From an uncultured Haloferula sp. (lineage in GTDB: Bacteria > Verrucomicrobiota > Verrucomicrobiia > Verrucomicrobiales > Akkermansiaceae), in NCBI GenBank assembly GCA_965652295.1, contig CBFGTS010000002.1:160001-224000 (forward strand): a stretch of DNA of 64,000 nt, in the 5' to 3' direction. A program made the position numbers and the translations under genes. This document shows positions 835-60,300 of this stretch, piece by piece; the first letter of the stretch is position 1; each line of letters starts with the position of its first letter. The notes under the pieces are model-generated. The model saw only the letters and a list, made by a program, of their open reading frames with translations, was not told the DNA's origin and ran no database searches.

Positions 835-1752
835 TCAATCCTCCATACTTAGGAACTCGCGCACCTCCCGCGCCAGCTCACGTGGCGCTTCCTCGGGTGC
901 CACATGGCCGACGTTTTCCAGCACCACCACGGAAATGCCGAGCCTCCCGGCAGGCAAGGTCTCCGGCGGCGTGATCGCATCGCCCGCACCCGCCACCATC
1001 AAGACCGGCTGGTGGATCTCATCCAGCTCCACCCGCCCGTCGCGAATCCGCTCGATCGATGACCCGAACCCCCGATAAGCCCGGTGCAGGCCCTCGACGA
1101 GAAGCTGCCGGTGATACTCCGCCATCGTCTCCTCAGAGAGATGATCCGGCTGAAAATAAGCGCGCTCGTAGAGCCCACGGAGCCTTGAGCGATCGCATAC
1201 CAACCCGCGTGCGAAAGGATAGAGCAACTCGCGGGCGACGGCACTGCGCAGGATCGAGTCCGGTGGGATGTCCATATTCAGCGCCGGGCTGACGAGTATC
1301 AGCCGACGGATCTTTTCCGGATGCGCGGCCGCCAGGCGCAACGCCAGCTCGCAGCCGTAGGAATGCGCCACGACGTCCACCGGGCCGCGCGTCTTCATTT
1401 CGAGAAACTTCGTCAGCATCGCCGCCTGTCCTGCCGGGTGATAGAGGGCCGCCCCGCGCGGCCGCTCGCTGTAGCCGAAGCCCCGCAAATCCGGCGCGAG
1501 CACCCGGCGCTTTCCCGCCAGCAGCGGCCCGAGGTCGTGGAACACGTGGCTCGATTGACCGAAGCCGTGGATCAGCAGGATCGATCGTTCACCGTGTCCC
1601 CATTCTTTGAAATGCACGGCAGCCCCGTCGATCTCCACGAACTCTCGCTGCGGCAGAGCCGCCCGGATGTCCGCAAACGGCGTCAAGGGACAGCAGCCCC
1701 CCGCCAGCAGTCCCAGCACGAGCGCAACTCCACGCCATCCGTCCGGTTTCAC
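835..1752 (-). CDS. alpha/beta-fold hydrolase, possibly a lipoprotein
   Basis: LIHGFG oxyanion motif, PDLRGFGYS, AHSYG nucleophile elbow, C-terminal GH..PEE. LLAGGC signal near the N-terminus. GTG at 1752 is preferred over the ORF start at 1965, which overlaps the RND gene. Confidence 0.85.
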   Translation of the reverse strand: MKPDGWRGVALVLGLLAGGCCPLTPFADIRAALPQREFVEIDGAAVHFKEWGHGERSILLIHGFGQSSHVFHDLGPLLAGKRRVLAPDLRGFGYSERPRGAALYHPAGQAAMLTKFLEMKTRGPVDVVAHSYGCELALRLAAAHPEKIRRLILVSPALNMDIPPDSILRSAVARELLYPFARGLVCDRSRLRGLYERAYFQPDHLSEETMAEYHRQLLVEGLHRAYRGFGSSIERIRDGRVELDEIHQPVLMVAGAGDAITPPETLPAGRLGISVVVLENVGHVAPEEAPRELAREVREFLSMED

Positions 1753-10218: not shown

Positions 10219-10638
10219 TTACTCGCCGGTCACCGCGACCACGATCTGGCGCTCATGCCCTGCGCGACGGTGCTCGAAAAGGAAGATGCCCTGCCACGTC
10301 CCCAACGTCATCCGCCCGCCGACCACGGGGATCACCTCGCTGGTCCGCGTGAGCGCCATCCGGATGTGACTCGGCATGTCGTCGGCTCCCTCGTAGGTGT
10401 GGACGAAATACGGCGTGTCCTCCGGCACCAGATGGTCGAAGAACGCCTCCAGGTCGCGACGCGCGCTCGGATCGGCGTTTTCCATGATCACCAGACTCGC
10501 CGAGGTGTGCCGGACGAAGACCGTCACCGTGCCGGTGGAGATGCCGCTTTCCTGCACGATGGAGGCAACCTCCGAACTGATCTCATAGGTCCCCTTCCCC
10601 CGGGTGCGGACGGAAAAACTGGCTGCATGCGCGCTCAT
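10219..10638 (-). CDS. yjbQ: YjbQ family (secondary thiamine-phosphate synthase-like, UPF0047)
   Basis: HTSASL...ENADP, H..EG.DDMPSHI, LGTWQGIFLFEHR. Confidence 0.93.
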   Translation of the reverse strand: MSAHAASFSVRTRGKGTYEISSEVASIVQESGISTGTVTVFVRHTSASLVIMENADPSARRDLEAFFDHLVPEDTPYFVHTYEGADDMPSHIRMALTRTSEVIPVVGGRMTLGTWQGIFLFEHRRAGHERQIVVAVTGE

Positions 10639-10689
10639 GAGCCGGTTTGGTAGCGGCGGAACCCTCGAACGTCCACCCCGCCCTCGCCC

Positions 10690-10827
10690 TAAAAAGACGA
10701 GGCGCGCGGCTCCCCCCGGAACCGCGCGCCACTCGTAGCATCCCCATCGGAATCGGTCTTTCGACCTGCTGAGAACCCGTCCCCCCGGAATGGTTCAGTC
10801 AGCTATCCCTCTCGGGCTTGCTTATAC
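10690..10827 (-). ncRNA. candidate structured small RNA (or cis leader of yjbQ) with repeated G-rich loops
   Basis: ORF-free gap. On the - strand: CCC-GAGA-GGG hairpin; GCTGA..GAACC..TTCCGGGGGGA..GGTTC.TCAGC stem-loop; GGTC-GAAA-GACC hairpin; TTCCGATGGGGA; then a GC-rich hairpin containing TTCCGGGGGGA followed by CTTTTT. Confidence 0.6.
10691..10736 (-). terminator. Rho-independent terminator
   Basis: ACGAG-T-GGCGCGCGGTTCC-GGGG-GGAGCCGCGCGCC-TCGT followed by CTTTTT on the - strand. Confidence 0.8.
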
Positions 10828-10833
10828 TTCAAC

Positions 10834-10875
10834 TATCGTGACCTTCCGGGCGATTTTCCAAAATTCGTGAATTTT
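10834..10875 (-). promoter_or_regulatory. putative alternative-sigma promoter with palindromic operator
   Basis: AAAATTC-N2-GAATTTT perfect inverted repeat (10860-10875) abutting GGAAAA-N15-CGATA on the - strand; AT-rich patch in a GC-rich genome. Confidence 0.4.
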
Positions 10876-10920
10876 TTTACAGGCCGATCCGCCTGCCACC
10901 ACCCGATCAGCGGTGAGAGC

Positions 10921-11520
10921 CTACTCCGGCCCGCGGATGGCCTCGGAAATTGAAGAAATCAGCCCGTTGTCGAGACGGTAGATCCAACTGTGGACGTCCA
11001 CCTGCTGCCCCCTATCCCAGGCATCCTGGACGATGGTCGTGCGCGAGACGTTTTCCGCATTCGCGACCACGTTCAGCTCGCACAACCGATCCACCTTCTG
11101 CGCGGGATCCAGCCCTTCCAACTCGTCTTCCCGCCGCCGCGCGACGTTCTGGATGTGCCGCAGCCAGTTATCGATGATCCCGTGCCGCTGGTTCTCCAGC
11201 GCTGCCTTCACTCCGCCGCAGCCGTAGTGACCGCAAACGATCACGTGTTTGACCTTCAGCACATCCACGGCGAACTGCAGCACCGAGAGGAAATTGAAGT
11301 CCGTCTGCACCACCACGTTGGCGACGTTGCGGTGCACGAACACCTCGCCGGGCGCGAGACCGGTGATCTGATTGGCCGGTACGCGGCTGTCGGAACAGCC
11401 GATCCACAGGTATTCCGGGGCCTGTTGTTTCGCCAGACGGGCGAAAAACTCAGGATCTTCGGCAACCTTCTCTGCCGCCCACGCCTTGTTTTTGTCCAGT
11501 AGCACCTTGAGGCTCTCCAT
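10921..11520 (-). CDS. can: beta-class carbonic anhydrase
   Basis: Q.PEYLWIGCSDSRVP, GEVFVHRNVAN, CGHYGCGG zinc ligands. Confidence 0.97.
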   Translation of the reverse strand: MESLKVLLDKNKAWAAEKVAEDPEFFARLAKQQAPEYLWIGCSDSRVPANQITGLAPGEVFVHRNVANVVVQTDFNFLSVLQFAVDVLKVKHVIVCGHYGCGGVKAALENQRHGIIDNWLRHIQNVARRREDELEGLDPAQKVDRLCELNVVANAENVSRTTIVQDAWDRGQQVDVHSWIYRLDNGLISSISEAIRGPE

Positions 11521-14134: not shown

Positions 14135-14189
14135 TTTTGGTTTGTATTTTACCCAAAACCGCCTGAATATGCCTTCGTGGACAAAATAC
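14135..14189 (+). promoter_or_regulatory. putative sigma70 promoter and operator of the TA module (leaderless)
   Basis: TTGTAT(14142)-N17-GAATAT(14165), with GTG 6 nt later; imperfect inverted repeats TTTTGG..CCAAAA and GTATTTT..AAAATAC. Confidence 0.5.
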
Positions 14190-14485
14190 CACCCTTTCAG
14201 CTCCGGAATCCGACTCACCTGACCAAACAAATCGGGCAGCGGATTCGGACGCACCGCAAGGCTCGCGGCTGGACCCAGGCGGAGCTGGCCGAGCGCTCCG
14301 GCGTCTCGCTTTCCACCCTCAAGCTCCTGGAGCGCGAAGGCAAAGGCTCGATCCAACGGCTGGCCAAGGTCGCCGTGATCCTCAATCTCGACGGCGAGCT
14401 GCGCGAGCTCTTCGCCACCACCCCGGCCTATGCCAGCCTCGATGAGGTGGAAGCCACCCACCGCCGGACCAGCAGGAAACCATGA
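14177..14485 (+). CDS. XRE/HTH_3 transcriptional regulator, HipB-like antitoxin
   Basis: IGQRIRTHRKARGWTQAELAERSGVSLSTLKLLE.G HTH; ATGA overlap with the hipA-like gene. Confidence 0.88.
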   Translation: MDKIPPFQLRNPTHLTKQIGQRIRTHRKARGWTQAELAERSGVSLSTLKLLEREGKGSIQRLAKVAVILNLDGELRELFATTPAYASLDEVEATHRRTSRKP

Positions 14486-15711
14486 AACTCGATGTCCGTT
14501 TCCTGGGTCTTTCGGACGCTCCTCGGATCGGAGGTTTGGCCGATGACGCCCGGGGCCGGATCTTCTTTCAATACGATCCCGCCTGGCTGGCGCTCGGGAT
14601 CGAGCTATCTCCCCTTCACCTCCCGCGATCCCTGACGGGCCCGGTGACCACGCCGACGCCGGAGTTCAGCCCGCTGTTCGGCGTGTTCGATGATTCCATG
14701 CCCGATTGGTGGGGCCAGCGGATCATGCGTCACCACTTCGCGAGCATGAACGTGCCGTGGAATGAAGTCCGCCCGCTGGAGAAACTCGCTTGTCAGGGAG
14801 CGTTCAGTCTCGGAGCGCTGGCCTACGAGCCGGATCTTTCTCCGGGATCATTCCGCGAAACGCTGGCAACCGAGGTGACCGAACTGGTGACCGCCGCGCG
14901 TCAGCTTCTGGAAGGAGACCCTCATGAACTGCTGCCCGCCCTCGTCCGCGGCGGACTTTCGCCCGGCGGTGCCCAGCCGAAGGCACTGGTCGCCTTCGAT
15001 GCCGATTTCACCCACGCCATGGCCGGAGGCGGCAGCGCGCCGGATGGCTTCACCTCGTGGCTGGTGAAATTCCAGCTCGACCCGGACGACCCCGTCGGCC
15101 GCGAAGAGCAAGCGGTGACCCTGATGGCGGCGGCCGCAGGCATCCGGACCCCGGAAACCCGCCTGTTCTGCACGCCCGACGGGTTGGCCCACTTCGTCAC
15201 AAAACGCTTCGATCGCCAGCCCGGCGAGCTGCCGCGGCATCTCCACACCTTCGCCGGCCTCACTCACACGCCGGTGCGCGATACGATCGATTACGACGAC
15301 TTTCTCAGCCTCACCCGCGATTTGACGCTTCATGAAGTCGAAGTGGAGCAAGCCTTCCTACGGGCCGCGTTCAACATCGCCATCGCCAACGACGACGACC
15401 ATTCCCGCAATCACGCCTTCCTGCTCGATCTTGAGCAGGGCTGGAAACTCTCCCCGGCCTACGACCTCACTCGCACCTCCTATCCACTCGGTTCGGGCTT
15501 CCGCGCCGGGGGAATCGGCGGGCGCTTTTCCGGGCTCAACGCCTCCGATCTCCGCCAACTCGCCAGGAACCAGGCCATTCGTCATCCCGATGAGAAAATC
15601 GGCCGGGTCGTGGATGCCGTCCGCCGGTGGCCGGAGTTCGCCGCCGCCGCCGGATTACGGGAAAGCCACGCCGTGATGCTCGCGACGGAAATGCCCGCCC
15701 AGCGTTGGTGA
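14482..15711 (+). CDS. hipA: HipA-family serine/threonine kinase toxin
   Basis: N-terminal HipA domain (FQYD..W..LSP..LP, F.DS.PD.WG), SPGGAQPKA P-loop, KRFDR, N.DDH.RN, LSPAYDL. Confidence 0.92.
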   Translation: MKLDVRFLGLSDAPRIGGLADDARGRIFFQYDPAWLALGIELSPLHLPRSLTGPVTTPTPEFSPLFGVFDDSMPDWWGQRIMRHHFASMNVPWNEVRPLEKLACQGAFSLGALAYEPDLSPGSFRETLATEVTELVTAARQLLEGDPHELLPALVRGGLSPGGAQPKALVAFDADFTHAMAGGGSAPDGFTSWLVKFQLDPDDPVGREEQAVTLMAAAAGIRTPETRLFCTPDGLAHFVTKRFDRQPGELPRHLHTFAGLTHTPVRDTIDYDDFLSLTRDLTLHEVEVEQAFLRAAFNIAIANDDDHSRNHAFLLDLEQGWKLSPAYDLTRTSYPLGSGFRAGGIGGRFSGLNASDLRQLARNQAIRHPDEKIGRVVDAVRRWPEFAAAAGLRESHAVMLATEMPAQRW

Positions 15712-15759
15712 CCCCCTCATTTGACACATCCCCGCCGCCCCCTAACTTCCCCGCAGCAC

Positions 15760-16947
15760 ATGTCCGCCTCCCCTTTCTCCGACTTCGTTTCCCACGCCCC
15801 CGGTCACTGGCCGGACGATGCCTCTGCCGAGTGGGACGACTACAAGTGGCAGCTCAAGAACCGCGTCAACACGCTCGCGGATCTGGAGGCCCGCATGCAG
15901 CTGACCGATACCGAACGCGCCGGCGTGCTGCTCGCCGGGTCGAAGCTCGCGATGTCGATCACGCCCCACTTCTTCAACCTCATTGATCCCGACGATCCAG
16001 ACTGCCCGATCCGCCGCCAAGTCATCCCGCGGCTGGAGGAAGGCTGGACCGCCCCCGAGGAAATGGCCGACCCCTGCGGCGAGGATTCGCACATGCCCGT
16101 CCCCGGGCTCGTCCACCGCTATCCGGACCGCGTGCTGTTTCTCGTCACCGACCGCTGCGCCTCCTACTGCCGCTACTGCACCCGCTCCCGGGTCGTCTCC
16201 GGCGTGGGCGAGCAGCACCTCGAGACCCAGTGGGAGGCCGCCTTCCAGTATCTCGAAAGAACTCCGCAAATCCGGGATGTTCTTCTCTCCGGCGGCGATC
16301 CCTTGCTTTTTTCCGACGCGAAATTGGAGAAAATCCTCACCCGCCTGCGCGCCATCCCGCACATCGAGTTCGTCCGCATCGGCTCGCGCATTCCCATCTT
16401 CCTGCCGCAACGGATCACGCCCGAGCTGTGCGCCATGCTGCGCAAGTTCCACCCGCTCTTCATTTCGATCCACAGCAACCACCCGAAAGAACTCACCACC
16501 GAGGTCCGCGACGCGCTCGGTCGGCTCGCCGACGCGGGCATCCCGATGGGAAACCAGAGTGTCCTTCTCAACGGCGTGAACGATTCCGTGGAGGTCCAGC
16601 GCACCCTGGTGCACAAGCTCCTGCGCTGCCGTGTCCGGCCCTACTACCTTTATCAGTGTGATCTCATCAACGGCTCCTCGCACCTCCGCACCAGCGTGTC
16701 GAAGGGCCTGGAGATTATCGAAGGCCTGCGGGGACATACCACCGGCTACGCCATTCCGCAGTTCGTGATCGATGGTCCCGGCGGCGGCGGCAAGATCCCG
16801 CTCAACCCCGATTACGTCCTCGACCGCAATGACGGTCGCACCCTGCTCCGCAACTACGAAGGCGAGACCTTCGAATACCCCGAACCCACCCCGGCCCCGG
16901 CCGAGGCCCTAGGCCTGCTCAAGGAACGCGCCACCTGCTGCCCATGA
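15760..16947 (+). CDS. kamA: KamA-family radical SAM lysine 2,3-aminomutase
   Basis: WQLKN, GLVHRYPDRVLF, CASYCRYCTR, LLSGGDPL, NQSVLL.GVND, PYYLYQCD, RGHTTGYA.P...D.PGGGGKIP. Confidence 0.92.
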   Translation: MSASPFSDFVSHAPGHWPDDASAEWDDYKWQLKNRVNTLADLEARMQLTDTERAGVLLAGSKLAMSITPHFFNLIDPDDPDCPIRRQVIPRLEEGWTAPEEMADPCGEDSHMPVPGLVHRYPDRVLFLVTDRCASYCRYCTRSRVVSGVGEQHLETQWEAAFQYLERTPQIRDVLLSGGDPLLFSDAKLEKILTRLRAIPHIEFVRIGSRIPIFLPQRITPELCAMLRKFHPLFISIHSNHPKELTTEVRDALGRLADAGIPMGNQSVLLNGVNDSVEVQRTLVHKLLRCRVRPYYLYQCDLINGSSHLRTSVSKGLEIIEGLRGHTTGYAIPQFVIDGPGGGGKIPLNPDYVLDRNDGRTLLRNYEGETFEYPEPTPAPAEALGLLKERATCCP

Positions 16948-38176: not shown

Positions 38177-38402
38177 GGGGTCTTTGGGCCTATTCACAGG
38201 AGCCGGAGCCGAAGCTACACGCCGCCGCGATGGCGTCCAGCCCCCATTATTCCTTGTCACGCGGCGCATGTTTTCCCCCAAGATCCCGGCGCTTCAGCAC
38301 GTTTCGGAACTGCGAGCGATGCCGCGTTTTTCGGCTGGCCACGCACCACCCCCGATCTACCTTTCCCCGCACACGCCATCTCACCGCCACGCCTTCCCAC
38401 CC

Positions 38403-39890
38403 ATGAGCCTGCATGCCCAACTGAGCCCCGAAGCTGAGGCCAGACTTCACGCCCAGAAGCGGAATTCGACGATTTCCTCGATCTTCATCTCGCTGCTCGT
38501 GGTCGTCCTCCTCGGATTGATTCTCGCCTTCATTTTCCTCCCGCCGCTCCTCAAGGAGGTGCCGGTGATCGTCAGCTATCAGACGAACTCGAACGCCGAA
38601 GAGAAGCTCGAGACCAAGAAGCTCACCAACAGCGTCGAGCGTAGACCCTCGGCCCCGTCCTCCGCCATGTCGAAGGTGATCGCCGCCAACACCGCCTCTC
38701 CGACAGCCGTGCCGGTGCCGGAGATCGACATTCCGGAGCCATCCCTTGATTTCGGAAACGGCGATGACTTCGGCGACGGCTGGGGCTCGGGAGGCGATGG
38801 AGGCGGCGGCGGATTCGGCGCCATCCCGGCGACGATGCAGAAACGCTGCTCACCCCAGGACCGCATGAAGCGGCTCCAGGAAAGCGGCGGCACCCCGGCC
38901 TGCGAAGATGCGGTCGTCAAAGGTCTCGACTGGCTCAAGAACACCCAGAAGCCCGATGGATCCTGGGGCGGAAAGTTCCGCTCGTCGGATACCGGCTTCG
39001 CCATCCTCGCCTTTCTCGGTCACTGCGAGACTCCCCTTTCCGAAAAATACGGCGAGACCGTCCTCAAGGGAATCACCTGGCTGGTGGACCTCGGGATGAA
39101 GCAGAACGGCAGACTCAACATCAGTGGTGAGGTCAATCCCCACCCCTACGAGCATGCCATCGCAACCTACGCGCTCGGCGAGTCGGCGACCTTCTGCAGC
39201 CAGCTCGGCATCAACGTCCCGAACCTCATGGATGTGACCCAGAAAGCCGGGCAATACATCATCGACCACCAACACGACTCCGGCGGCTGGGACTACGGCT
39301 ACAAGGTGGATGGCGACCGCGGCGGTGATCTTTCCGTTTCGGCCTGGCAGGTTCAGGCCCTCAAAGCCTGCAAACACACCGGCATGGATTTCAAGAACCT
39401 GGATCGCTCCGTCCGCAAAGCGCTCGATTACATCGCCGACTGCAAGATCGGTTCCGGTGGTTTCGGATACCGGCCGACTGAGCAGCACTTGACGAGGTCG
39501 GGTTACGCGACTCTCACCGGAGCCGGCATGCTGGCTTTCCAGATGTGGGGGAAATCCGCCGTTTCGGAGGTGCGCAATGGCGCGAAGTACATCCGCGAGA
39601 ACTCGAAGTTCGACTACGATTCAGCCCACGCCGACCTCTACGCCCACTACTATGAAAGCCAGGCGATGATCGCCCGCGGTGGCGAGGACTGGAAACATTA
39701 CAACAAACTGTTCCGCGACGAGGTGCTGAACGGTCAGGAAGGCGATGGTTCGTGGAAGGAGCCCGGCGGCGGCAAGAATGAAGCCCACGCTTCAGAACAC
39801 TACCGCGACCGCCACTACCGCACCTGCCTCTGCATCCTGATGCTCGAGTCCTATTACCGGTTCCTGCCCGCCACCGGCGAAGGCCACTGA
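38403..39890 (+). CDS. membrane-anchored prenyltransferase/squalene-cyclase-repeat (QW-motif) protein
   Basis: TM, Gly-rich linker; GL.WL...Q..DGSW, Y.HAIATYAL.E, Q...GGW.Y, D.SV..WQ..AL, Q..DGSW, L.LE.YYR.LP. Confidence 0.82.
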   Translation: MSLHAQLSPEAEARLHAQKRNSTISSIFISLLVVVLLGLILAFIFLPPLLKEVPVIVSYQTNSNAEEKLETKKLTNSVERRPSAPSSAMSKVIAANTASPTAVPVPEIDIPEPSLDFGNGDDFGDGWGSGGDGGGGGFGAIPATMQKRCSPQDRMKRLQESGGTPACEDAVVKGLDWLKNTQKPDGSWGGKFRSSDTGFAILAFLGHCETPLSEKYGETVLKGITWLVDLGMKQNGRLNISGEVNPHPYEHAIATYALGESATFCSQLGINVPNLMDVTQKAGQYIIDHQHDSGGWDYGYKVDGDRGGDLSVSAWQVQALKACKHTGMDFKNLDRSVRKALDYIADCKIGSGGFGYRPTEQHLTRSGYATLTGAGMLAFQMWGKSAVSEVRNGAKYIRENSKFDYDSAHADLYAHYYESQAMIARGGEDWKHYNKLFRDEVLNGQEGDGSWKEPGGGKNEAHASEHYRDRHYRTCLCILMLESYYRFLPATGEGH

Positions 39891-42635: not shown

Positions 42636-43094
42636 ATGGACCAGACCCTCGCCCGACTCGAATCCCTCGGCTACCAACTCCCCGACGTCCCCGCCCCCGT
42701 CGCCGCCTACGTCAACTGCGTGCGCACCGGAAACCTGCTCTTCCTCTCCGGCGGCCTGCCGATCGAAGGGGAACGCAAAATCATCGGCAAAGTGCCTACC
42801 GATGTCTCCCCGGAGGAAGCTGCCGAAGGCGCACGCATGATCATGCTCAACCGCCTCGCCGTGATCCGCGGGGAAATAGGCTCGCTCGACAAGGTCACCC
42901 GCATCGTCGCCCTGAATGGCTTCGTGAATTCCGAACCGGACTTCTACGGCCATCCGCAGGTGGTCAATGGAGCCTCCGAGTTCCTGCTCGAAGTCTTCGG
43001 CGAGCGCGGCAAGCACAGCCGCACCGCCCTCGGCGCCGCCGCCCTGCCGCTCAATGTCGCCGTCGAGATCAACATGATCGTCGAGGTCGAGTGA
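42636..43094 (+). CDS. RidA/YjgF family protein
   Basis: LP..P.PVAAYV, GNLLFLSG, P.V.NGASE...VFGE.G.H.RTA.G...LP....VEI. Confidence 0.92.
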   Translation: MDQTLARLESLGYQLPDVPAPVAAYVNCVRTGNLLFLSGGLPIEGERKIIGKVPTDVSPEEAAEGARMIMLNRLAVIRGEIGSLDKVTRIVALNGFVNSEPDFYGHPQVVNGASEFLLEVFGERGKHSRTALGAAALPLNVAVEINMIVEVE

Positions 43095-57346: not shown

Positions 57347-60300
57347 TCAAGGGTCTGTCGGTGCCAAATTGAAGGAATGCGGAGCTTGCTGGGATGCCCG
57401 GAGGCGAATGAACCGGCTTTCGGGCGGGCCATCTAAGAACGTTTCCGCGGCGCGCACGCTTTCGGGATCGCTTCCAGGATTCAGCACCTCGAGGGAGACT
57501 TCGTCCCACGTCACGAGATCCTGCGAGCTTTCCGCAACATAGGCCACATCCGCCAAAAAGGCCGGACGCTCGAAGAGCAGCATCAGCTGGGCGTCCGTGA
57601 TCGCCATTTCCGGCAGCGGCGACGCCTCCATCGGATCGCTTCCGAGCGCATACTCCATGAAATTCTCCAATCCATCTTGGTCGGGATCCACCGACGGCGC
57701 CCCGAGGCCGGATTGAAGTCCCGATGCCGTGAACGCCGAAGCGATCCAGCTCCGGTAATCGCGTGGCAGGATCGTCAGCACACCCGTCGTCGAGGATTGG
57801 TAGTCGTCGTCGAGGATGGACGCGGCGACCGGATAAGCCCCCGGCACCACCGGCGGACTACTGGATCCATCGTAAGTAACCTCCACCCCCAGTCCCCGGG
57901 GATCGGTGACCACGGAGACGGATCGCGGAGAACCGGTGTAATTCACCGCCAGGTCGGTCAATTGGATTGAAGCCTGAGGCATCGATGCCAGCTCGGCGAT
58001 TTCCCCTGAAGACAAGGCAATAGCATAGATGCGGAAATCATCGACCCGTCCGTCGAGCGCGGGATCGGCATACTGCGATCTCCCGATGTAGTTCTGGGTC
58101 GTCGCGCCGAGTGCCGCCGGCGTCAGCGCCATTCCGGAGTTCGTTCCCACCGCCGCGCCATTGACGAAGAGCGTCCCCACCCCGCCCTGCAAGGTCACGG
58201 CGACATGCGTCCAGCTCTGCGTTGGCAGAGGTCCCGTTCCGTCGATCCGCTGCTCGCCGCCCGCTCCGCCGTTCGTGATGGCAAAGCGCACCAGGTTGCT
58301 GTTTCCGGTCATCGGGGTCAGGAACATGTTCGTCTGCGTCCCGGATCCGAAATCGAAAATCCGCGTCCAGCCACCCACCGAGTCCAAGTGGACCCACGTG
58401 GCAATGGTGAAATCGCTCAGCCCGGACATCACACCAGGCGCGAAAGTCACGTGGCTCCCGCCCCCGAGGCGGATCGCCCCCCTCACCCTGCCGTTCGGCT
58501 CAGGCTCCCACACCGGACCTGCGATGAGACTTCCCTCTCTGCCCCGCCCGCTCGCGTCCGCCGCCACCGTGCCAGCGCCGTCGTCGAAACGAAGATGAGC
58601 ATGAAGCGTTCCCGCCACCGCCATCACCTCATCGCTGTTAATACTTTCCCCCACTTCATGAGCCGCGCTGACCACGTAGTAGTAAGTCACTCCCTCCACG
58701 ACGTCAGGATCGACGAAGCGGGCATCGGTCAATCCGCTGGCGAGGATGACGTAAGGCCCGCCCGGCTGCAGGGAACGCTTCACCGAATAGCTCTCCGCCC
58801 GATGGGATGCCCGCCATTTCAAACCGACCGACGAACCGGACACCCGTGAAGCCACAAACTCGCTGGGAGGAAGAGGCGGCAAGGGCCCAACCGGCATCTG
58901 ACCCTCCAAGGCGGGCCGCACCGTAGGTGAGGAGGCATCGCGCGAATGATACCCCACGTAGATGCCCGAAGTCGTCGGATCCGTGATCCGGATGGAAAGC
59001 ACCCCGTCACCTGCGGCTTCACGACGGACGAGATCGGTCACATTCAGGGAAAACTCCTGCCCTACCGAGTAACTCGATCGCCGGGCAAAGATCTCGCCCG
59101 ATCCCGCAGGCTGATTGTTCCAGTTGAGCCCATACTCGCTCCAGGTGTCGTTTTCCACCCACTCATAGGCAAGGTTGGGCGAGCCATCCACCTGGTCGGG
59201 AGTGAGCTTGAGCACGACATTGTTCGCCTGTCCGAGTTTGCTGACATCGAACTTGAGGAAGGTGTTGCGATTGAAGATCGAACCTGATGTCCCGTCATTC
59301 TTCACCGCCAGCCGCGTGTCGTTTCCAAAATTGCTTCCCGCGTCGCCGCCATCCCGCGCGAAAGTATCGGCGATCGGTTCGACCCGATAGGTCGTCGGCG
59401 TCGTCGCCACGGCAGGTCCGGCATGCGCTCCCTCCCCATACAGATTGAACCCGGATACACGATAGTAGTAGGTCGTGCCGGCATCGACGCGGTCATCCTG
59501 GAAGGTCGTTCCACTGAGGCCCGCCGCCACCTCCATGAAAGGACCGCCCGCCGATTCGGCCCTGCGGACGATGTATGACTCGGCTCCGGGAGAAGCCGTC
59601 CATGAGAGATCGATTTGATCGAACGCTGCGGCCACCGCCATCAGACCGGTGGGAGCGACGGGAGGATGCGAACTTCCGGTTGTCGCGCTCGTCTCGCTGC
59701 TCGGCTCGCTGGGACCCGCCCCGTTGATCGCCCGCACCACCCAGTGGTAGGAGGTCAATTCTGCCAGGGCGGAGTCGGTGAAGGTCGTTCCACCGAGTCC
59801 GCTCGCCACGACCTGATAAGGCCCGCCCGAGGTGGACGAGCGGAGCATTTCGTAGGTCTCCGCGCCCGCCGCAGCCGACCATGACAGGTGAATGCTTCCG
59901 TCCATCAGGGGGGCCGCCGTCAGATTCAGGGGCTGGAACGGAACCTCGCCCGACTGCCAAATCTCTCCGCCCGTCACTTCCACGAAATCGATGTTCGGCA
60001 GCCCGGCAGCCGACACCGCCTCCAGGCGAATCTCGCGCACTCCGGATGGGACGCTGGCATACACGGTCAGAAGCTCCCAGCGATCCCATCCGCCCGTCGA
60101 TGGAAAGACGATGCCTGTTGTAAGAACCTGCCCATCGACCCGCAGCTCAGCCAACCGGTCGTCCGTTCCCGCGTAGCGGAAGGTAAACGCTTTCACCGGC
60201 GATGAATCGAAGTCGAGCGTGTAGCCCAACCCCGCACCACTGAAGTTGTCGGTATTGGCAAAGCCGGGACCGGTGTAGCCGGGATGAATATCTTCGACGA

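Follow-up and report, generated by a model that had tools for sequence, protein, structure and literature searches.

The intergenic region between can and yjbQ on the minus strand of the window (the whole stretch of 64,000 nucleotides that was analysed) encodes, as a gene standing by itself, a predicted small RNA without a Rfam match. This element belongs to an uncatalogued family of predicted small RNAs that occurs genus-wide and in multiple copies in Haloferula and whose conserved feature is a set of two GGGG tetraloops on covarying stems, one of which caps the terminator. A preliminary description of the locus had proposed a modular, independently promoted small RNA without a Rfam family, a proposal supported by the negative Rfam scans; the existence of a paralogous family lay beyond the view of a reading confined to a single window.

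A 141-nt stretch of the minus strand was predicted to fold with -72 kcal/mol (z -5.4), a value equaled by none of 200 shuffles. The 11-nt exact direct repeat within the element arose in 13 of 5000 dinucleotide shuffles, and TTCCGGGGGGA occurs six times in the 4.37-Mb genome (G000), including two copies within the element. The predicted fold consists of a three-way junction followed by an intrinsic terminator (Table 1), and the folds predicted for the homologs in the related genome G021 and on contig C21 of G000 resemble it. Each GGGG loop exposes four G, with one or two further G held in the short tip stem. The predicted cost of opening is about 6.6 kcal/mol for loop 1 and 7.8–14 kcal/mol for the terminator loop. 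The ensemble of the element contained no alternative anti-terminator fold. A scan of the whole window against Rfam 15 yielded no family at the gathering threshold for the element; at E<=10 the element had a single chance-level match, located on the opposite strand. Scans of 20 and 18 loci with members of the G-loop family and of the C-run family discussed below returned tRNAs only.

All motifs listed in the preliminary description are present at the coordinates it gave, and its terminator with U-tract was recovered by a terminator scan (10701-10730). Several of its structural assignments have to be revised. The G-rich motif, thought to be displayed three times, is displayed twice: the variant at 10741-10752 is predicted to lie within the basal stem, as part of its 3' arm, and is absent from the two closest homologs. 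The supposed CCC-GAGA-GGG hairpin lies outside the minimum-energy fold and is impossible in the C21 paralog. GGA, regarded as a displayed motif, is paired, since the loop itself is GGGG and TTCC/GGGA is mainly stem.

Table 1 Features of the predicted G-loop RNA gene and of the predicted C-run RNAs. Positions without a contig are those of the window; contigs are those of G000
Feature	Position	Strand	Remarks
can, carbonic anhydrase, upstream neighbor outside the RNA gene	10921..11520	-	NF007756 above cut-off
Seven-A tract, upstream of promoter	10872..10878	-	Overlaps palindrome 10860-10875
Predicted -35 TTGGAA	10856..10861	-	Subgroup consensus TTGAAA/TTGGAA
Predicted -10 CGATAG	10833..10838	-	17 nt from -35
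Predicted G-loop small RNA	10691..10827, ~137 nt	-	5' end placed from the promoter
Basal stem of three-way junction, 5' arm	10805..10822	-	Predicted fold
Hairpin 1	10768..10803	-	3-bp tip stem UCC/GGA, GGGG tetraloop 10783-10786
GAAA-capped small side hairpin of junction	10755..10766	-	Varies across family
Basal stem, 3' arm	10737..10753	-	Contains the supposed third motif, paired in fold
Intrinsic-terminator hairpin	10701..10730	-	Second GGGG tetraloop 10714-10717; terminator scan
Terminator U-tract	10691..10695	-	Sequence and terminator scan
yjbQ, downstream neighbor	10219..10638	-	Mostly unlinked to the RNA in congeners
Predicted C-run RNA	C22:12200-12375	+	Conserved across genus
Predicted C-run RNAs	C3:225130-225275, 59500-59600, 58890-59000	-	
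Predicted C-run RNA	C11:51100-51190	-	
Predicted C-run RNAs	C13:110-400, 1085-1150	-	
Predicted C-run RNA	C21:23975-24260	-	

Homologs of the element were found at first by sequence searches: BLAST detected matches in 3 of 61 genomes only, among them the ortholog in G021, and missed the paralog on C21, which was found with nhmmer. An exact 13-nt pattern taken from the 5' end was discarded as a probe, as it occurred in 29 of 121 genomes, yet only three sites, all already known, were members. A first covariance model was built from the element, the G021 ortholog and the C21 paralog, and the model R2 was refined on 20 sequences of nine genomes. R2 produced 119 matches, inspected in part and including some weak ones that are lone terminators, in 35 of 35 Haloferula genomes, 26 of which lay outside the training set. 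About nine copies were attributed to G000 and 11 to G021. Two GGGG tetraloops are present in the folds of 21 of the 24 best matches checked. In one sister genus, 15 of 40 genomes had a match, and all 15 copies checked have two GGGG tetraloops. A search of 38 genomes from 23 further genera of the bacterial family found none. In a sample of 150 genomes of the phylum, searched with stricter filters, the only match outside the genus (G274, E 8e-4) was a plain terminator. Out of 44 pattern matches in a genome collection, 22 reached at least 35 bits with the model, and all 22 were from Verrucomicrobia; none of 17 viral pattern matches passed 25 bits. Named records, cultured type strains among them, thus place the G-loop family in Haloferula and close relatives. 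No published small-RNA study of this lineage was found, and the main text of PMC11109978 does not mention the lineage. The family is undescribed in the literature searched, where an entry solely in a supplement or in a subscription paper is possible.

Besides the short copies, a long form of 450–480 nt with three to six loop motifs is conserved in four species. Its representative in G000 (C4:171100-171570, +, ~470 nt) has five G-loop motifs and the same promoter motif as the element, and is conserved in G021, G032 and G008. The neighbors of other copies are unrelated between subgroups and often encoded on the opposite strand. One widespread subgroup precedes an NAD synthase gene at fixed sites across species; in another, a mazG-like gene faces the RNA gene tail-to-tail, and a pilus ATPase gene is often found head-to-head with it. 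REP-like hairpin units were seen by eye between tRNA-Lys and the C21 copy. A further structured non-coding region of G000 (C1:172640-172815, +) combines a site of its own resembling a promoter with one terminator capped by GGGG; it looked SAH-riboswitch-like but had no real Rfam match.

A conserved covarying structure is supported by the covariance model, by two-sided changes and by raw tip sequences. In the alignment, which was fitted to the model and so leans towards structure, 92% of the cells are paired (35–54% in slid controls) and two-sided changes occur at 26 of 29 pairs; in the terminator helix (helix 6) they affect 12 of 14 pairs. In the raw sequences, the tip stem varies as UCC/GGA, UUC/GAA, GCU/GGC and GUC/GAC around a constant GGGG. 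Read over its closing bases, the loop motif is YY-G5/6-A, and among 59 loop motifs GGAGG never stands in place of GGGGG. Genome-wide loop censuses did not find GGGG-capped hairpins to be commoner than hairpins with other loops. The alignment contains 74 G-U/U-G cells against 10 A-C/C-A cells, and this ratio indicates that the G strand is the folded strand. A 6C-like reading of the C strand was rejected on the same wobble ratio, on the higher stability of the G-strand fold in 29 of 29 and on the orientation of promoter and terminator.

The predicted promoter of the element is shared within its subgroup. With a loose pattern, 18 of 20 loci of the element's own and related subgroups were found to have TGRAA-N17-CGATW at a distance of 141–197 or 449–465 nt ahead of the 3' end. 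In the non-coding DNA of G000, TGRAA and CGATW occur nine times at a spacing of 17 and two to five times at other spacings, and five of the nine sites head G-loop genes. The remaining four (C9:4519, C10:182705 and C23:39352 on the plus strand, C3:185041 on the minus strand) are possible members of the same sigma regulon. A scan with the sigma-70 consensus detected no promoter at the element. The motif is unlike the TTGC-N17-TAGNNT type, read by eye, ahead of tRNA genes, which points to an alternative sigma factor; a 285-aa RpoS-like sigma is a candidate for the element's subgroup. A sigma factor of the FliA type, considered because of the spacing, was discarded, as none was above cut-off in G000. 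The two most widespread subgroups have a different promoter that appears housekeeping-like by eye. The palindrome at 10860-10875, pointed out in the preliminary description, is unique in the genome; its suggested role as an operator was not upheld, because it is not conserved. The seven-A tract that overlaps it is kept at the same offset in four of six related copies shown, whereas the palindrome is found in this copy alone, and the tract is probably UP-element-like.

Support for expression consists of three short contigs from one run (X1), which was taken as RNA by guess. They are 99+% identical and cover 10633-10772, with nothing else of a 1.6-kb region represented. One contig stops at 10687 and ends in a tail absent from the genome and rich in A on the minus strand; another spans 10716 to 10633, through the terminator into yjbQ. 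Against the 7-kb C21 locus X1 returned no contigs, which neither proves absence nor supports expression of the G/C pair there. A second run (X2) was set aside, as it contained coding pieces of other organisms only.

G000 also contains a multi-copy set of predicted C-run RNAs with U-C5/6-RR motifs and C-loop terminators (Table 1), whose strand was assigned from layout and terminator position only. Rfam had no match in the C-run loci scanned. Some 'GGGG hairpins' at C21, C13 and C3 were considered as G-loop RNAs and are more likely the reverse strands of C-run RNAs. Reverse-complemented, U-C5/6-RR gives YY-G5/6-A, and the length range of five or six is shared. In 10 C-run RNAs, U precedes 31 of 35 C5+ runs (background 0.35–0.39) and RR follows 23 of 35 (background 0.35–0.36); in 16 homologs of one C-run RNA, 43 of 54 runs stand after U and 43 of 54 before RR, where the RR partly reflects stem pairing within the C-run RNA itself. 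BLAST with one C-run RNA gave strong matches in 16 of 35 congener genomes; across 201 genomes the C-run pattern was too noisy for a study of co-distribution.

Tail-to-tail or head-to-head arrangements of C-run and G-loop genes are frequent. When the G loci had been taken in advance from the R2 matches and seven reverse readings left out (five by script and two, in the long G RNA, by hand), 8 of 28 loose C-hairpin candidates in G000 were within 1 kb of a G locus, compared to a background of 0.9% of non-coding positions; for candidates with three or more further C runs the count was 5 of 7. The linked C loci are clustered (three at C13, two at C3) and hence not independent. In G021, all three clear C-run matches adjoin G genes, and in G032 one of two seen does. 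A crude neighbor count gave 20 of 54 G loci versus 12 of 74 control loci, the controls being more coding. The element's own copy has no C-run RNA within 500–600 nt, and almost every copy in the two most widespread subgroups likewise lacks one.

After correction for opening, loop 1 was predicted to pair with eight C-run RNAs at -7.4 to -10.7 kcal/mol. For mRNA start regions (260 sampled of 1822) the median was -4.2 and the 5th percentile -8.2 kcal/mol, so that six of the eight C-run RNAs are at or beyond this percentile. Some start regions pair with loop 1 as well as the C-run RNAs do, the best at -10 to -11.7 kcal/mol. Folding of whole-molecule duplexes was uninformative and was not used.

In 504 crudely called genes of G000, start regions are C-rich and G-poor (C at 50% of positions -2 and 69% of positions -1) and depleted in the SD-like GGAG/GAGG. 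A TANNNT peak at -12 in 20 of the 504 indicates a leaderless-looking share. Housekeeping -10 boxes in G000 are followed by C-rich stretches. This composition leaves few G-rich start sites for C-run RNAs and a small possible set of mRNAs for G-loop RNAs. TCCCCC at -40..0 was no commoner than same-composition permutations, and start codons showed no enrichment of YYGGGGGR in their vicinity. Of 1822 genes, 5 have at least four C runs around the start, where 0.4 are expected. One such gene, a kamA-like radical SAM gene in the window (15682-15775, +), has five C runs around its start codon, a number tied for the most in the genome, and is a candidate target of G-loop RNAs. The window also contains a HipB-like and HipA-like toxin-antitoxin pair (14177-15711, +), both below curated cut-offs. 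The preliminary description had named two C-rich leaders as possible partners. The one at 38394-38405 is indeed TTCCCACCCATG; the one at 42636 reads CATCCCATG, with three C, and not CATCCCCATG. As for RNA-binding proteins, the proposed search for csrA, hfq and proQ found neither CsrA (PF02599) nor Hfq nor ProQ in G000, which is 98% complete. The suggested titration of a protein through GGA motifs is not sustained, as GGA is paired and CsrA was not found. G000 encodes four RRM-1 proteins and one of the KhpA/B type. A 119-aa RRM-1 gene is divergent from the G-loop copy on C6; this arrangement does not recur in G021 or G032.

We consider it about evenly probable (0.5) that G-loop RNAs pair with and titrate the U-C5/6 tracts of the predicted C-run RNAs, an arrangement in which each family would titrate the other. 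The element's subgroup would be turned on by an alternative sigma factor, for which the 285-aa RpoS-like protein is a candidate. The GGGG loop would then kiss an exposed C run, the 2–3-bp tip stem would melt, and a G-C-rich duplex of 7–9 bp would form without Hfq or ProQ and neutralize the C-run RNA. G-loop RNAs may also block a minority of mRNAs with several C runs around the start codon. Our interpretation leans towards the C-run RNAs as decoys rather than regulators, because starts are G-poor and SD-less and because C-run motifs are more numerous and often unpaired. A protein-free switch, in which sigma-induced G-loop RNAs would repress mRNAs with C-run starts and C-run decoys, often encoded in the same cassette, would release them, is a more tentative possibility. 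Against pairing of RNAs speaks that part of the G tract is tied up in a tip stem kept by compensatory change, a conservation consistent with a protein that recognizes the tetraloop by its shape. Moreover, since a C-loop hairpin looks like a G-loop hairpin when read in reverse, a common origin by inversion could explain the G/C match without present-day pairing, and the adjacency may stem from large intergenic regions shared for other reasons.

The most substantial rival, possible yet on the doubtful side, is that the RNAs are sponges for a protein, e.g. an RRM protein, that reads a Y-G-closed GGGG tetraloop, following the logic of CsrB. Such a role would agree with compensatory tip changes that preserve the shape of a 4-nt loop, with a loop number that varies from two in short copies to three to six in the long form, with lone GGGG-capped terminators in G000 and with the presence of RRM-1 and KhpA/B-type genes, one RRM-1 gene being divergent from the C6 copy. 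According to PMC11697453, an RRM protein of Bacteroides binds the 14-member FopS family; the same source describes base pairing by the FopS RNAs themselves. A sponge would leave both the reverse-complement match to C-run RNAs and the adjacency unexplained. RRM adjacency occurred once in 73 neighbors and in neither G021 nor G032, and with YYGGGGGR not enriched at start codons, no sites for such a protein stand out in mRNAs. Unlikely, too, is the direct form of the inverse cuckoo RNA put forward in the preliminary description, i.e. G loops that repress mRNAs at C-rich starts with C-run RNAs uninvolved. The C-rich, G-poor starts with their depletion of SD-like motifs, the five genes with four or more C runs (including the kamA-like gene) and the energies of the best start regions are in its favor. 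However, TCCCCC is not above permutations at -40..0, leaderless-looking genes would not transcribe the C-rich bases upstream of them, the linked C-run RNAs find no explanation, and gene starts were crudely called. From that proposal, pairing of G-rich loops with C-rich RNA stays plausible, in an altered form: the C-run small RNAs fit better as partners than mRNA leaders in general, given that TCCCCC is not enriched at start regions.

A cis-acting attenuator or riboswitch of yjbQ, or a can 3' UTR released by processing, both raised as alternatives in the preliminary description, would account for a terminator that ends about 50 nt ahead of yjbQ in G000 as well as in G021, and for the X1 contig crossing it. 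Yet only 2 of 30 yjbQ loci (1 of 29 among congeners) carry the element, and the gene upstream of the G021 ortholog is trpS instead of can. The few yjbQ loci and the unrelated neighbors of other copies rule out either role for the family as a whole, and with a conserved promoter of its own and no anti-terminator fold we regard both as very improbable for this locus. Still less credit is given to a REP- or MITE-like mobile repeat or a lineage-typical style of terminator devoid of RNA function. Copies are numerous and vary in context, some weak matches are lone terminators, and GGGG-capped hairpins are not commoner genome-wide than others; against this stand a promoter at fixed distance, a wobble pattern that fits one strand, orthologous fixed sites across species and the lack of any transposase (with one integrase) among 73 neighbor genes scanned. 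Equally remote is mimicry of the Shine-Dalgarno sequence, whereby G loops would bind the 16S anti-SD tail and hold 30S subunits. The tail, CCUCC, is kept in three relatives although mRNAs barely use it (no 16S 3' end was found in the G000 assembly), but the predicted pairing amounts to -8.6 to -9.4 kcal/mol before the opening cost of 6.6, compared to -16.1 for a full SD, and a GGAGG substitution was absent from the 59 loop motifs.

The family was compared with known small RNAs on the basis of Rfam and of descriptions in the papers cited here. It affiliates with none of them; its mechanism would be like that of RsaI on RsaE. In Staphylococcus aureus, RsaI (RsaOG) uses two GGGG motifs to pair with the UCCCC motifs of RsaE, which inactivates RsaE (PMC9217828). 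The G-loop RNAs likewise have two GGGG motifs in one small RNA. They differ by their occurrence in another phylum, the missing Rfam match, the organization as a paralogous family of up to ~11 copies, G tetraloops on covarying stems with one on the terminator, adjacent C-run genes and a host that makes little use of the SD. In Bacillus subtilis, RosA is described as one processed RNA of ~229 nt with single-stranded G regions, which bind the C-rich stretches in RoxS and FsrA through essential G-C pairs (PMC8216469), in contrast to the hairpin-loop G tracts and the multi-copy family found here. In common with the RsaI/RosA type, at least two G tracts are complementary, in predicted duplexes, to C-rich motifs of small RNAs of the same cell; homology to RsaI or RosA was not indicated by any Rfam match.

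The cuckoo RNAs of Alphaproteobacteria present the anti-SD loop motif CCUCCUCCC in two to four adjacent hairpins and, similar to the G-loop RNAs, are modular and multi-copy with one fixed loop motif on compensatorily variable stems (PMC4615179). The G-loop RNAs have GGGG instead of CCUCCUCCC loops, a three-way junction or a long irregular stem, and a host without SD use. 6C RNA of Actinomycetota targets G-rich ribosome-binding sites with its C loops independently of Hfq and ProQ (PMC6486639). Pairing through homopolymer G-C loops is common to both systems, and it is the C-run RNAs that resemble 6C, whereas the G-loop RNA is its mirror image. FopS RNAs of Bacteroides have a 5' R1 seed in single-stranded form and, after it, a single terminator hairpin (PMC11697453). 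FopS with RbpB resembles the present case as a paralogous small-RNA family in a lineage without Hfq, ProQ and CsrA but with RRM proteins; the folded domain of the G-loop RNAs, which adds a second hairpin with a GGGG loop, and the lack of a sequence or Rfam match separate the two.

The G-loop RNAs invite one further comparison, with sponges of proteins. CsrB and RsmY display identical hairpin-loop motifs repeatedly and in variable number. CsrA prefers GGA loops in the description given by PMC13443453. In the G-loop family, GGGG occupies the loop; GGA lies in the stem, paired to UCC, and paralogs have GAA, GAC or GGC in its place.

Families of small RNAs with loop-displayed seeds, such as LhrC, are C-rich in these seeds, as their targets are SD sequences. 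For cuckoo and 6C RNAs, the available descriptions relate the C-rich loop seeds to SD sequences as targets (PMC4615179, PMC6486639). A G-loop family with adjacent C-run partners reverses this rule and offers a first handle on post-transcriptional control in bacteria without SD usage or detectable Hfq, ProQ and CsrA. Should the protein-free switch hold true, it would constitute a circuit in the style of CsrA/CsrB whose repressor is an RNA; if a protein binds instead, a reader of GGGG tetraloops would represent a new RNA-binding specificity.
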